Shown here one piece after another: positions 47,101 through 53,100 of a stretch of DNA of 64,000 bases. The stretch is from the NCBI RefSeq assembly GCF_011045215.1, contig NZ_CP049201.1; one strand, written 5' to 3'. How positions within the stretch are numbered: position 1 is the stretch's first letter; each line of letters starts with the position of its first letter. A program made the position numbers. This DNA is from Escherichia coli (GTDB lineage Bacteria; Pseudomonadota; Gammaproteobacteria; Enterobacterales; Enterobacteriaceae).

Positions 47101-50100
47101 ATCAGCAAATGATGGCGAAAATGCGACTGCGGCCAGTGCGCCGACCAGAAATTGCCCATCACATAATCGCTTTGTTGCTGCTCGCAGAGATCAAAACGGT
47201 ACATCGACTGCCAATGCTGATGATGATTAAACTGCAACACCCAATCATCACCCTCCTGCAACAACCGATACTCTCCGTGTGGCGTGGTCTGCACGAGATC
47301 GGGAACTAAACGAATCGGCGCGGTTAGCGTCTGCCCACCGAAACCGACATCAGCAATCCATTTTTCCTCTTCCAGTTCCACCAACAGCAAACGATGGGTG
47401 CGCGGGGGTAATGCTGGCGGATTTGATAACACTACCCGCCCTAACAAGCTGCGAACGTGAAACCCCAGCTCGCGTAACACCCGCTCAAACACGCCATTCT
47501 GCTCAAAACAGTAACCGCCACGACGGGCTATCACGAGTTTCTCTTCCAGCGATTGATCATCAAGCTGCATTTCCCTCGGCAGCAAAACGTCGAGGTTTTC
47601 AAACGGAATGGTGCAATTGTGTTTCAGGTGCAATGCACGAAGCGTATCAATATTGACCGCAGCAGTTCCCGACCAGTTAATACGGGCAAAATAGTGATTC
47701 AGAATGGGCGTCATCAGGCGTTTCCCTTAGTGGTTTTCTCAACTTATAACCTGGAATAGACGCCGCACCGGCTATTTTGTGCGATCGCGGACATGCATCA
47801 CGTTCGCAAATCGCCAATCCCGTTAATTTCGTTACTTATTGCGTTACGGACTACGCTTAAAAAAACCTTCTTCGCGAGGCGATACCATGAGCCGATTCAT
47901 CCCCATAGAATTACACCATGCCAGCCGTCTGTTAAATCATGGCCCAACTGTCTTGATCACCAGTTTCGATGAGCAATCCCAGCGGCGTAACATTATGGCT
48001 GCAGCCTGGTCAATGCCGGTGGAGTTTGAACCTCCACGCGTGGCGATTGTGGTAGATAAATCGACATGGACCAGGGAGTTGATTGAACATAACGGTAAAT
48101 TTGGCATCGTTATCCCGGGCGTTGCAGCAACTAACTGGACGTGGGCAGTGGGAAGTGTATCTGGGCGTGAAGAAGATAAATTTAATTGCTACGGCATTCC
48201 GGTGGTGAAAGGTCCGGTGCTTGGTTTGCCACTTGTTGAAGAGAAATGCCTGGCGTGGATGGAGTGCCGCCTGCTACCTGCGACTTCTGCGCAACAAAAA
48301 TACGACACGCTGTTTGGCGAGGTGGTATCAGCAGCGGCAGACGCACGGGTATTTGTCGAAGGCCGCTGGCAGTTTGATGATGATAAGCTCAATACGTTGC
48401 ATCATTTAGGTGCTGGCACGTTTGTTACCAGCGGCAAGCGAGTTACGGCAGGTTAAGCATTACATGCTGTAACCGGGTTTCTTTATCAAAGCCTCCATTT
48501 GGGGCGCGATTTCGGCATCCCAGATAGCTTGCCAAGATTCTGGTTGAATCTGCTGTAGAGCAATGCTTATCGAAATGTCTTTACTGTTCAGATGGCGAAT
48601 AATAACGTCGGTAATATCTGCAGCAAGTGCTGCTTTTTGTTGTTCGTCCAGTTCACGCGGAAAACATTTAATGTCGATGTGCGGCATGATTGTGCTCCTT
48701 TTGAAAGATGTCAGTAAAATTAACACACATTGTGAATGTCGTATGTCCGGTGATGCGTTTTTACGACAATAATGCCTACTTGAAATTGTAGATATTTGCA
48801 CTACACCCTTTTAAATAAAGCACCAACAAATCGTCAACTTGCAGAACATATTCTTCTGCCTACATACCATTAAGAAAACATCAAGTTTCCGACTTGCCAA
48901 TTTATTAATGCCCATTATAGACGCTGAAACAAGCCACGGACAAAGAAGATGCCAAAATTACCGGCGATGCAGAAAAACTCAACGAACCAGGGCAAGATTA
49001 CGAAAGCCCGCTCCCGCAAGGACTGACGCCAGATAGTTTCTGTCCATGGCTGCTTTTCGCATCTTACGTCTTAACCCTGCCTTGAATACCTTATCATTCG
49101 TCAAAATATTAATAGCAATGTGCCGTATCCCTGAAAATAATTCTGCAGCATTTCCTCTTCTTATTTTGCAGTCGTCTTCATTCATTACCACGTCCAGACG
49201 CCAGTGCAGCTTATTCTCCACGTGCCAGTGGTTTCGGATTGCTGTGGCGAACTTCTCTGCGGTTAAATCAGCAGAACTGATATAATATCTGACCGTCATT
49301 TCTGGCTCTTTCTTTTGTTCTGCTATTATTGACCGAAAGGAGACTGCCACGCATAATTTCTTCAGTCCTTTCCATTCAAACGTGAAATCAATAAGTTCAT
49401 CAGGGACATCGCAAACAATATGAAGACGGATTTCTTCTCTGCCGTGACTAAAATGCGAATTATTTAGTACAAAAAAAGCGGCGCACCTTGTTCTTTCCCA
49501 GATTCCTAATATGGCAACTTTAAGTTATCGCCGTCTATACTTATAGAAATTTCATCAGGGGTGACGTAAATAGAATTTTTTTCATCCTCAATTGCCCATA
49601 ACTGATTAATAAAAAAGTATTTTTTTCATCTAATAAAAAATTATCACATGTAGTAAAATTATTAATATCAAAAAAAATCATCAGCACAATTAATTTTTAA
49701 ATTTAAAAAATAAAGAAAAATATTATTGATTGATTTGAGTGTAAACCACTTGTCATTAACAAATTTATAGCCAGATGATTTTATAAAATAATAATTATCT
49801 CCTGGTATAAAGGCATACATATCATTTAAGGTTATACTCAACAAAAAACTACGACCTGGTTTAATAGTATTCCACCGTTCAGGATTCGTATTAATTTCAA
49901 AAGGACATGAACCACCTAAGTAGTCCAACGTGATATTCCCAGAGTTGATTCTGAATGGTTTTTTGCATATCGCATCATATTCATCTCCTTTTCCATCTTT
50001 TACTTTCATAGGTAGATAATATTTAGAAAAAAAATACGTGGTAGAGCTATTGTTAGTAAAGGTTATGTTAGCAAAAATCCTGTTATTTTTTTTACTCATA

Positions 50101-53100
50101 GCTAATTGAGCATTGACATCCGCTATATAATTTATATGATTACATTTTTTCTTACACTCATCATAATTTTCGATAGGATAAATTAATGGCCTTCCTTTGA
50201 TATCTCTCTCAAGCCCAAACCCGTATTTTTTTATTAAAACCATTTCATCCGCAGTCGATTGAAAGGAATAGAAAAATATAATATTTACGATTGTCATTAT
50301 TATGATTTTTTTTATAGCTTGCAGCATTAATATATTTCTCGACTTATTAGTTAATGGAGAAGTGCTTTTTCTAATTCCGCTATTTTTTTCTTAACTGAAT
50401 TGCTTAATATTTCATCATTAATCGAGTCTATCTCACTTTCAATTAATCTTATTTCAAAATATCTTTCTATGTTATATGCATTCTCAAATATTTGATCTTT
50501 TTGTTTAGAGATCAGTTTAGTTGCAATACGGATATGTTCGTCATATGAAACTTCATCCTCTTTGCACGTTGAATATTTATCAGTAGTTGTATAATTCTGT
50601 GACCACATACCACCTTTTTTATTATCCCCATAATACCACTGAATATGAGACATTTCATGACATAAAGTAGCAACATGAGAATCCTTTCCCGTTACTGGAT
50701 TTTTTTGCCATCTCTATACTCAAATTTTGCGCCTATGTTAATTATATAGGGCATATCCTTACTTGGGCTGACGAATGCTGCAAATTCATTACAACCTGTA
50801 TAATTTATAAAACTGCTCATTGTTAAATCATTAGCTATAATCATTAATCTTCTCACACCATCCATCATAAGAAATCTAGCATTCATGCGCCTAACTGTAT
50901 TATGTCCATATTTTCTTATATTAACTTCCTTATTTCCTTTAACACCAAAGATCTTACTGAAATCATATTCCTCCTGTGCTCCCCATCTCAAAAGATCATC
51001 TGCTCTTTTTATCAAAACCAACTTTTGTGCCTTACGAACCTTATCAATCATTATTTTAAAATGATCAGTTATTTTTTGCTCTTTCACACATTCTTCTGGC
51101 TCTGGCTTTGGTTGTCCAGAAGTTTGATTATTATCGTCCATAGTGTCCTTCCATTGAGAGAAAATCATCATTCGCAAATAGCAACTAAAAAGCAGCATTA
51201 CTTGACCTTTCCCTGCATAACAATATTTATAAAATAATACGTTTTATGATCTCACCTTGGGCTCCCAACAAGATAATTTCAGTTTTAAAGACTTTCACGA
51301 AAAAATATAGAAATACCTCACCACCCTTCACTTACCAATTAATCTCACAGGAAATCCAACTTCCTTACCACAAATACAATCCCAAGTAACATTTCCCAAA
51401 ATTTTTGATACTTTAGGCTGCAATGGCATTATTGACATTATAAATTTATCAAGTTCTTCGCTATATTTAATTCCCTTTATATTTCTTATTATTGATATTC
51501 TAGCAGTAAAGATAGCCGTCTCTCCATCTACACTAAAAGTGTAATTACAATTTTTTGTAATCTCATCAAATTCAACCGATAACAAATCAATATTATGGTT
51601 TGTAAACACTATGCCCATTCCATACCTCCTTAAATTCCTGTTCAGTCATCAGATATCGACTCCCTTGATATGGATCATATATTATCACATTCCCAGCATC
51701 ATCAACACCCTTAACAAGTACCCAATGTCCTACTTTACTTCCAGAATCCCACATCATTGCTCCCCATGAACCAGTATTACTGAGGGCATATAAACTAGAT
51801 TCGCTCACTGCATTCCCTTCCCAGCCGACATCAAATTTATTAAGCTTGTTTGCCAGCGACGTCATAGATGTTAATTCTGTTCCAATTACATTTTGCGTGA
51901 CAAAAATATACCTATCCCTAAGCAACATTTCCCCACAGGCCGCTCCACAGCCTGTTAAAGTCAATTGCTTTATTACATTTGAATCTAAAACCTCATCAAA
52001 TACTGTCCAATTGCCACCAGCACCACCTTCTAAAACTACCGGCTCTACAAATACTTTCCCAGAGATATTTTCTTCTGGTATTTTTGCGGGTATCATAAAG
52101 CCCCATAAAAAGCTGGAAAAATGCTCCAGAGCAATCTGATCACCATTATTTGCATCCATTATCATTTTTTTAAGTGCATCCCATGCTTGCCCATTTATCA
52201 ATGAATCACTAATATTAAATAAAGCCTGTTCTTTTTCGTTTAAATTTATATTTGCCTGTTCACATAACCCATCTTCGCCTATCGGGCAAGCAACCGTTGC
52301 CGTTGCCGTATCTAACAGAGCATCGAATGTAACTAAGGCTAAATCCGCCACACCATGTAAAGTGGTGATTGCTCCATTCCCCATTTGAGTAAGTGTGTTC
52401 TCTCCAAACCATTCTCTAATTTGAGATTTATCTCCTTCAATACCATTCCTGAGAGATTCTCTGATATTCTTTATTGAAAAAAACTCCCCCCATGATTGGT
52501 CAGGATCTTTTATTTGGAATAAATCATTTTTAACCTCAGGTGAAATATCTCCGTCAAAAATATTACCAACAGAGAGGAGATCCTTCAGAAGCAGTAAATC
52601 GTGTATTACTTCAGCAGTCCTTTCATAATTAAAACTTCTATCAATGACAGAAATCATTGGTGATTTTATTTTGGTATATAATTTACCAAGGCAGTTATGG
52701 TTATTAATCCCAACAACTGAACCATGATAAGCAACAGGTTTCCCTTCTATTGTTACAGTCGGACTTCCCGTTAAAATAACACAGTCACCCGTTCCTTGAG
52801 ATGTACCGGATATGACACCTTTACCGGCATTACTTTGAGTTCCAGCAATCACTGAACCAACATTTAAAGCTCTGCATCCACGCGCCCATACCGTTGAACT
52901 GTACTGTCTTTCACTATCTAAAGTCTGGTAACTGTCAAAAGGAACCTTGTAACCTCCTACTTCACATACATCTGGTGAAGTACACACGACTCTAAATCTA
53001 GATTCACCATCCCCGATATGATAGTTACCCATAATATTTTTTCCCTATACATTCAGGAATAATACAACTCAGCACTCCTTCTTTCATTCCAAAAAAATCA

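Follow-up and report, generated by a model that had tools for sequence, protein, structure and literature searches.

A shortened allele of a likely immunity protein for M35-like type VI secretion effectors resembles the pro-domain of M35 zymogens

We analyzed a 64,000-nucleotide stretch of the Escherichia coli chromosome (RefSeq assembly GCF_011045215.1, contig NZ_CP049201.1), referred to here as the window, and in it a 219-amino-acid open reading frame (ORF), the target, at the end of an AT-rich island. We consider it likely that this ORF represents one allele of a periplasmic protein conferring immunity to an M35 (aspzincin)-like, VgrG-loaded type VI secretion system (T6SS) effector. It belongs to a family, still without a name, whose role as immunity to M35-like T6SS effectors has experimental support. 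A sequence-only reading of the window had proposed immunity for the neighboring HExxH protein, which is supported by gene order, by co-divergence of the two proteins, by the toxicity of the effector of strain BCE049 and by rescue through co-expression in E. coli PAR. Missing from that account were the truncation of this copy, the frameshift in the HExxH gene and the likeness to an M35 pro-domain.

The target gene encodes a protein with a predicted signal peptide

The target gene and its parts are as follows.

49668..50327, minus strand: target ORF, 219 amino acids, a 3'-truncated allele of a 273-amino-acid T6SS immunity-family gene (ORF listing; alignments to intact alleles)
50250..50327, minus strand: predicted Sec signal peptide, codons 1-26 (MLQAIKKIIIMTIVNIIFFYSFQSTA↓DE; hydropathy, -3/-1 rule, conservation in homologues)
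49758..50117, minus strand: β-sandwich core, codons 71-190, similar to the pro-region of AsaP1 (M35), with Cys121 and Cys141
49506..49667, minus strand: out-of-frame 3' remainder, the last 54 codons of the intact protein (three-frame translation; alignment to 33F4)

The ATG-to-stop frame reported earlier was found at 49668-50327 on the minus strand, and it is indeed AT-rich (27.6% GC, against about 50% in the core genes flanking the island). Its product contains five cysteines (Cys 58, 62, 121, 141 and 214), not the four that had been counted. As for the proposed Sec-type signal peptide, the sequence features strengthen that prediction: a basic n-region (K6K7) precedes a hydrophobic core of 15 residues (Kyte-Doolittle 2.35 at residues 8-22) and a lone -3/-1 site, STA↓DE, after residue 26, with similar N-termini in the Salmonella, Buttiauxella, Franconibacter and E. 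coli PAR-type homologues. Hydropathy analysis of the 219-amino-acid ORF revealed no second hydrophobic segment after the N-terminal one. A lipoprotein reading was rejected, since there is no lipobox, the first cysteine is residue 58 and the cleavage site is of type I.

RefSeq annotates the gene as "hypothetical protein" in all strains inspected, including UTI89 and Nissle 1917. The statement that the product matches nothing recognizable holds at the level of Pfam and NCBIfam, where nothing reached threshold; the sole Pfam match, to DUF4352, covers 45 residues with 17.6 bits against a gathering threshold of 25.9 (E = 0.005) and recurs in just 1 of 100 family members. Searching the Protein Data Bank (PDB) with the single target sequence likewise returned nothing above threshold. 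A promoter and terminator scan was uninformative, with 17 promoter-like sites against 13.5 expected and a lone terminator-like site inside the ORF.

The target family is encoded next to M35-like effectors

The target gene lies 23 nucleotides 3' of, and in the same orientation as, the HExxH gene.

50351..51141, minus strand: M35/aspzincin-like T6SS effector gene, frameshifted (ORFs; alignments to intact alleles)
50645..50659, minus strand: HEMSH zinc-binding motif of the effector (direct sequence reading)

In the window the effector gene appears as two ORFs, one of 168 (50692-51198) and one of 100 amino acids (50351-50653), split by a -1 frameshift at an A7 run (50701-50707) that is A8 in intact alleles. 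The effector frame ends 15 codons ahead of HEMSH, while the 100-amino-acid ORF starts at a Met inside this motif. Intact, the effector has 263 amino acids, is annotated "peptidase M35", occurs on at least 1,000 contigs and has no signal peptide. Taken alone, the E. coli effector scores 19 bits against Pfam Aspzincin_M35 (cut-off 30) and shows a weak match to Peptidase_M91 (E = 0.012). A profile built from 16 effector sequences and searched against the PDB matched AsaP1 in its catalytic part (residues 255-337, E = 2.7e-6) and GfMEP, the Grifola peptidyl-Lys metalloendopeptidase (E = 2e-3), and nothing else. Residues H162, E163, H166 and D183, together with a C-terminal NAYNIERYF, are invariant in the effector family alignment. 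Asp183, which sits within GGMxTxD 17 residues past the second His of HEMSH, is by analogy a putative third zinc ligand.

Relatives of the target were reached through the neighbors of effector genes and by exhaustive profile searching; a word-indexed search gave only E. coli fragments. The order VgrG, M35-like gene, target homologue recurred in a further eight locus types, which represent at least five genera: Salmonella (L003, L026), Buttiauxella (L006), E. coli T6SS clusters (L008, L010/L011/PAR), Franconibacter (L012), a metagenome (L016) and Scandinavium (L018). The same order occurs in E. coli UTI89, Nissle 1917, FDAARGOS_1290 and BCE049. Wherever the context of an M35-like relative was examined, its gene begins at or overlaps the VgrG stop, and the gene 3' of it, without any Pfam match, is a target homologue; in the other locus types the effector stop and immunity start often overlap. 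BLASTP comparisons of these downstream genes with the target gave the following.

Salmonella: 41% identity, E = 1e-76
Buttiauxella: 39% identity, E = 4e-61
E. coli T6SS-2 cluster: 41% identity, E = 1e-50
E. coli T6SS-1/PAR type: 31% identity, E = 1e-20
Franconibacter: 35% identity, E = 9e-20

The metagenome contig carries PAAR, VgrG and an M35-like gene (E = 4e-51), then a family member. In Scandinavium, the M35 moiety is a C-terminal Aspzincin_M35 domain of a 970-amino-acid VgrG, which matches AsaP1 (E = 2.4e-5) and has a precomputed match to PF14521, and a family member is again the next gene. Across 36 locus pairs, which are not independent of one another, the divergence of the effector and that of the downstream protein are correlated (Pearson r = 0.72), the downstream protein diverging faster. 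Family members with no M35 gene nearby were met in two more distant contexts only (L017 and L019). The suggested co-occurrence with HExxH effectors is therefore borne out as an adjacency that holds across genera, the family being overwhelmingly T6SS-linked with two orphan contexts.

A six-member profile searched against 1.84 billion representative proteins retrieved 141 clusters, defined at 50% identity, at E ≤ 1e-3 and 57 at E ≤ 1e-30. All named members are "hypothetical proteins" of Enterobacterales (Escherichia, Salmonella, Buttiauxella, Franconibacter, Superficieibacter, Scandinavium, Cronobacter and Trabulsiella), with none from Pseudomonas or Acinetobacter. No convincing family emerged from a Pfam scan of 100 members, which at E ≤ 0.01 gave only six unrelated single-member matches. 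Family members are 200-315 amino acids long, and more distant ones of 130-230 amino acids consist of little beyond the core described below.

Several loci showed further arrangements. In Salmonella indica/arizonae (L026, GCA_016029755.1), an intact pair lies in a T6SS core cluster (VipAB, Hcp, VgrG), its effector being 93.5% and its immunity protein 91% identical to the window pair. Since DNA identity to the window is 94.9% over 1,690 bp compared with 83% for VgrG, a recent exchange of the cargo module between genera is suggested by these sequences. Nissle 1917 (L021, NZ_CP022686.1 45360-50333) carries a short M35 allele of 200 amino acids, with HEFSH and a family member of its own (227 amino acids as annotated); the window-type gene is there an extra orphan copy behind this other pair, giving an array of two immunity paralogues. 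In Scandinavium goeteborgense (L018, 5740-6351), two ORFs of 79 and 120 amino acids jointly match the family profile and represent a second, split copy. The distant members at L017 (5001-5822) and L019 (3860-6035) have no M35 or T6SS genes within 5 kb; one context lies between a Peptidase_C92 gene and ruvA, the other is a tandem pair (354 and 344 amino acids) beside a LysR regulator. These two may be orphan immunity genes or have a different role. Orphan or extra copies, as in the window, Nissle 1917, L017 and L019, are a pattern typical of immunity genes.

Published experiments on related pairs

The "effector locus 1" of BCE049 (FQU84_13600-13645) occupies the same site as the island in the window, between yncG and yddH, and its module-5 M35 protein is identical to the intact form of the window effector at 259 of 263 positions. 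This protein reduced E. coli survival only when provided with a PelB leader, its toxicity thus being confined to the periplasm (PMC7904677), as would suit an immunity protein exported by Sec. In E. coli PAR, an M35 protein is toxic and its toxicity is relieved by co-expression of the next gene (PMC10673891). We located this pair in NZ_CP012379.1, where a frameshifted VgrG is followed by a 262-amino-acid M35-like gene and a 308-amino-acid family member; the frameshifted VgrG agrees with the split VgrG plus DUF2345 described for PAR.

A further published gene may belong here. In the extraintestinal pathogenic E. coli strain F11, the "hypothetical protein" EcF11_2628 shows PHYRE likeness to AsaP1 and a fitness phenotype by transposon sequencing in zebrafish (PMC3749937). 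F11 carries a PAR-type M35 pair, and EcF11_2628 could be either partner because effector and immunity protein each resemble parts of AsaP1.

The core of the target resembles the pro-region of M35 zymogens

We modeled the immunity protein with AlphaFold2 on a 100-sequence alignment, obtaining a predicted local distance difference test (pLDDT) score of 86.6 and a predicted template modeling score of 0.77; a six-sequence run, which later served as control, gave a pLDDT of 57.7. The model consists of a signal helix (residues 2-21), a small hairpin (35-51), a β-sandwich (71-190, pLDDT 92-98), two helices and a C-terminal hairpin (252-265). The Cys121/Cys141 pair within the β-sandwich is invariant in the six-sequence alignment (A1). 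This core shows structural likeness to the pro-region of an M35 zymogen (Foldseek E = 7e-7). M35 enzymes are synthesized as zymogens that carry an N-terminal pro-peptide as inhibitor (PMC11985622).

Sequence profiles led to the same segment. At E ≤ 10, the 100-sequence profile matched only residues 31-125 of AsaP1 in the PDB (E = 1.9e-4). The effector matches a region (255-337) far downstream of these residues, which also lie upstream of the mature start; alignment with the mature Grifola enzyme would place this start at about residue 172. The segment therefore corresponds to the pro-region. A profile of the 39 distant relatives alone detected the AsaP1 segment with E = 3.4e-12, the target with E = 1.3e-23 and all 61 of the 61 close members, while hhalign joined the close and distant tiers with 99.9% probability. 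The best structural and sequence matches of the target are a protease pro-domain and a protease inhibitor. An M35 catalytic domain joined to a pro-domain-like region was not seen in a Pfam scan of the 100 members and of larger distant matches (P0161, P0168, P0173, P0157 and others), so zymogen intermediates were not found among the scanned members.

These results bear on two alternatives. It is scarcely credible that the target is an unrelated secreted Ig-like protein, an adhesin or binding module hitch-hiking at the end of the island. The β-sandwich is a generic fold, the sub-threshold match is to DUF4352, and two homologues lie outside a T6SS context; however, the adjacency to M35-like effectors is strict across genera and architectures, the two proteins diverge in a correlated manner, and the best matches are specifically to a pro-domain and an inhibitor of proteases. 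We also give very little credence to the idea that the target serves the protease in trans as a folding chaperone or maturation factor and is not an inhibitor that protects. Pro-domains are commonly intramolecular chaperones (general knowledge; PMC11985622) and it is a pro-domain that the target fold matches, but the target has a Sec signal whereas the loading of T6SS cargo is cytoplasmic, and inside the producer the two would therefore not come together. Moreover, the effector alone is active in the periplasm (PMC7904677), co-expression relieves rather than enables toxicity (PMC10673891), and orphan copies exist without any protease.

Protection of the producer by a periplasmic immunity protein is the reading that we prefer, and it can be laid out as a sequence of steps. 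Comparison of loci gives the order of the intact module as PAAR, VgrG, effector, immunity. The effector, having no signal peptide, would be fired into the periplasm of a neighbor, and the immunity protein would be exported by Sec to the producer's own periplasm, where it would bind and block effector arriving from sister cells. Its β-sandwich core would be a homologue of the N-terminal pro-domain by which M35 zymogens, AsaP1 among them, are held inactive, and would cap the active-site cleft in trans, in a fold stapled by a Cys121-Cys141 disulfide. If the core is homologous to the inhibitory M35 pro-domain, a trans-acting pro-domain is the most likely mechanism, and the target is probably such a propeptide mimic. 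We lean, by a little, toward an origin of the family in the recruitment of the inhibitory pro-domain of an M35 zymogen, the toxin being a bare catalytic domain on VgrG and the antidote a pro-domain exported alone.

The window carries a copy with a common truncation

Intact alleles encode 273 amino acids, as in E. coli 33F4 (P0001) and in Salmonella enterica subsp. indica/arizonae at 91% identity. The 33F4 product has 263 amino acids from the start chosen by the Prokaryotic Genome Annotation Pipeline and 273 from the ATG of the sequence-only reading; the 273-amino-acid Salmonella product begins MLQAIK, confirming both full length and start codon. The window copy has a T8 run at 49670-49677 where intact alleles have T7; the frame is thereby shifted and ends in DDFF and a stop. 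Downstream, a second slip has left A7 (49620-49626) where intact alleles read A8. The 54 lost codons encode helix 234-250, the C-terminal hairpin (modeled at pLDDT 94-97), Cys227 and the motif IDGDxxKxPY, whose conservation spans Salmonella to Franconibacter. What the shortened product retains is the signal peptide and the entire pro-domain-like core.

The gene is present in 631 of 5,426 complete E. coli genomes at 98-99% DNA identity, including APEC O1, LF82 and ATCC 11775. Exact-sequence look-ups of the products gave the following counts.

219 amino acids, one-residue variant of the window product: at least 1,000 contigs (the commonest allele)
261 amino acids, C-terminal frameshift (UTI89 and Nissle type): 889 contigs
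263 amino acids, intact: 294 contigs
219 amino acids, the exact window product (WP_250848397.1): 3 contigs

A sequencing artefact is unlikely to be the cause of the truncation, because the T8 state recurs in O145 genomes, in FDAARGOS_1290 and on those at least 1,000 contigs. Homopolymer errors may lie behind some other assemblies, such as that of BCE049, in which the immunity gene (NZ_CP042250.1 2401062-2401833) is split by homopolymer indels into ORFs of 87 and 151 amino acids. In some assemblies (E. coli clusters P0006 and P0009), sequence of the VgrG gp5 domain runs on in frame into the target at about its residue 100 (FSKYYLP...); these fusions imply deletions that join vgrG straight to the target gene.

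Is the window allele a dead relic of the immunity family, decaying by homopolymer slippage? We see this as possible but doubtful. Compared with intact alleles it has two frameshifts, its neighboring effector is broken and the module has no VgrG of its own; O145 strains have additional frameshifts in the same gene, each indel observed among strains falls within one of its 13 A/T runs of at least six bases, and the lost hairpin is confidently modeled with a conserved motif. Against decay, the same truncation, as the one-residue variant, is the commonest allele, and FDAARGOS_1290 has it adjoining an intact PAAR-VgrG-M35 module, a combination that would poison the cell itself if an active system met an inert product. 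The retained signal peptide and entire core, and the existence of distant members that are scarcely more than core, also speak for function. As an immunity protein the window copy may still protect against kin with an intact effector; the effector being broken in the window, any remaining role would be defense against kin that carry the intact toxin.

The pair is a remnant of an older module

The window has the gene order narZYWV-yddE-nhoA-yddH-pptA, the AT-rich island, then yncG-ansP-yncE-pqqU of the E. coli chromosome. The target had been placed at the distal end of the island, and so it proves: beyond it lie a transposase fragment and then pptA/yddH. The neighboring features are these.

48979..49458, minus strand: ISEc1/ISAs1-family transposase fragment, island boundary (Pfam DDE_Tnp_1; RefSeq pseudogene annotation mapped over)
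51134..51184, minus strand: remnant of the ancestral VgrG, its last 17 codons (LLFANDDFLSMEGHYGR, then the stop; tblastn)
51328-51618, minus strand: Cpi1, immunity to Cpe1 (RefSeq name)
51593-53032, minus strand: PAAR-like-Cpe1 cysteine-protease effector (Pfam Tox-PAAR-like and Peptidase_C39; RefSeq name Cpe1)

The transposase fragment lies about 48 nucleotides past the stop of the intact (273-amino-acid) immunity gene. The VgrG relic, located between Cpi1 and the M35 start, is 65% identical to the C-terminus of the Salmonella VgrG (tblastn, E = 7e-5) and overlaps the effector start, as in intact modules. At this chromosomal site UTI89, FDAARGOS_1290 and BCE049 have the complete PAAR-VgrG-M35-target module. 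Because the window instead has the 17-codon relic preceded by VgrG-DUF2169-PAAR-like-Cpe1-Cpi1, the M35 pair is, to judge by these remains, an older module left behind when the Cpe1-Cpi1 module displaced its VgrG. The window pair is orphaned: its VgrG has been replaced, its effector is frameshifted and its immunity gene is cut to 219 amino acids by homopolymer slippage. The whole arrangement, a Cpe1-Cpi1 module with the M35 pair downstream, is found in 1 of 5,426 complete genomes.

The upstream module (51328-56463, minus strand) seems intact, with PAAR, VgrG (660 amino acids), DUF2169, PAAR-like-Cpe1 (479 amino acids, C39-like) and Cpi1 (96 amino acids). Cpe1 belongs to a published toxin family that cleaves GyrB/ParE (PMC12136450). 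A second AT-rich stretch of the window (33000-38500) holds the ordinary yddG, an OmpC-like porin, leucine-rich-repeat genes and narU, and is present in nearly all E. coli at 95-99% identity.

Discussion

Several observations count against the interpretation given here. On the pro-domain, the AsaP1 pro-region goes undetected when the profile is built from the 61 close relatives alone, and the sequence link to it would be transitive, through intermediates. Furthermore, the catalytic gene comes first and the pro-domain-like gene second, which is the reverse of zymogen order, so simple gene fission does not explain the origin of the pair. On the experiments, the PAR homologue that was tested is only 31% identical to the target, and we infer from gene order and the split VgrG that AKO63_2955/2956 are the RefSeq genes examined here. 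In BCE049 the split immunity gene sits beside an intact VgrG and M35 effector, which means either a homopolymer error in the assembly or that immunity is dispensable there. Finally, the truncation deletes a confidently modeled hairpin with the family-conserved IDGDxxKxPY and leaves Cys214 unpaired, and the window copy may be defective.

With the assignment as an effector-immunity pair, a family outside Pfam and NCBIfam models acquires a name and a function that can be tested. The likeness to a pro-domain offers a concrete mechanism of neutralization and hints at how such pairs can evolve, through functional separation of the halves of a zymogen; it also points to a possible natural protein inhibitor scaffold for the Lys-specific M35 proteases used in proteomics. 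A full-text literature search for "aspzincin" and "T6SS" returned no papers, and the pro-domain homology of this immunity family appears to be unreported. If true, this would be the first T6SS immunity protein recognized, in the literature searched, as a trans-acting copy of the pro-peptide of its effector family. Likewise, the 219-amino-acid allele would define a minimal inhibitory module, signal peptide plus pro-domain core, with a dispensable C-terminal sub-domain. The locus also illustrates the turnover of T6SS cargo, in which Cpe1-Cpi1 displaces a VgrG and the older pair, once orphaned, erodes at A/T homopolymers.

Comparison with known systems

Among the closest known systems is the PAR pair (AKO63_2955/2956; PMC10673891), whose immunity protein belongs to the same family (31% identity over the core, E = 1e-20) and which shares the post-VgrG gene order and an N-terminal signal-like segment. 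It belongs to another allele class, sits in the core cluster of T6SS-1 after a VgrG of the DUF2345 type and has a 308-amino-acid product, and its authors give the immunity protein no name, fold or mechanism. Module 5 of BCE049 (PMC7904677), at the orthologous yncG-yddH locus, has the near-identical effector; it differs in its immunity gene, split as described above, and the published test covered the effector only.

A system of matching logic is that of the VgrG2b C-terminal metallopeptidase with PA0261, or Tpe1 with Tpi1 (PMC6899460): a periplasm-acting HExxH effector, VgrG-fused or separate cargo, is neutralized by a Sec-exported, downstream-encoded protein with conserved Cys. We regard it as very unlikely that the target is itself a PA0261/Tpi family member that neutralizes metallopeptidases of this type. 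The PAR "M35" protein and the toxin domain of VgrG2b are treated as equivalent in one paper, and the weak Peptidase_M91 match of the effector may be set beside another paper that gives VgrG2b an M91 domain. Yet the effector profile and the Scandinavium VgrG C-terminus match AsaP1, and neither matches any VgrG2b chain at E ≤ 10; the VgrG2b C-terminal domain is gluzincin-like, with a Glu as its additional, fourth zinc ligand and likeness to thermolysin-like folds. PA0261 itself is immunity to the VgrG2b metallopeptidase in one paper (PMC6899460) and Tli3, immunity to the lipase Tle3, in another (PMC6560169). The target family is set apart from PA0261 by description, for the latter's enterobacterial homologues are small lipoproteins, whereas target-family members have 200-315 amino acids, the E. 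coli protein has no lipobox Cys, and no named member comes from Pseudomonas.

The target of Bacillus subtilis Ipi is reportedly a serine protease. Ipi (PDB 3isy) differs from the protein studied here in being cytoplasmic and has no detectable sequence similarity to it. As for the AsaP1 zymogen of Aeromonas salmonicida (PDB 2x3a/2x3b/2x3c), its pro-domain is attached upstream of the protease and removed on activation, whereas the target is a separate downstream gene with its own signal peptide. The target also adds an N-terminal hairpin, a C-terminal helix-hairpin and the disulfide pair, and identity between the two is only 17%. Free-standing inhibitors homologous to pro-peptides include Spi of streptococcal SpeB and the subtilisin pro-peptide-like inhibitors of MEROPS family I9. 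These belong to other protease clans and folds, none is known to be T6SS-linked, and the literature search turned up no report of one for M35, but they share with the proposed role of the target the principle that a separately encoded pro-domain-like protein shields the producer from its own protease.

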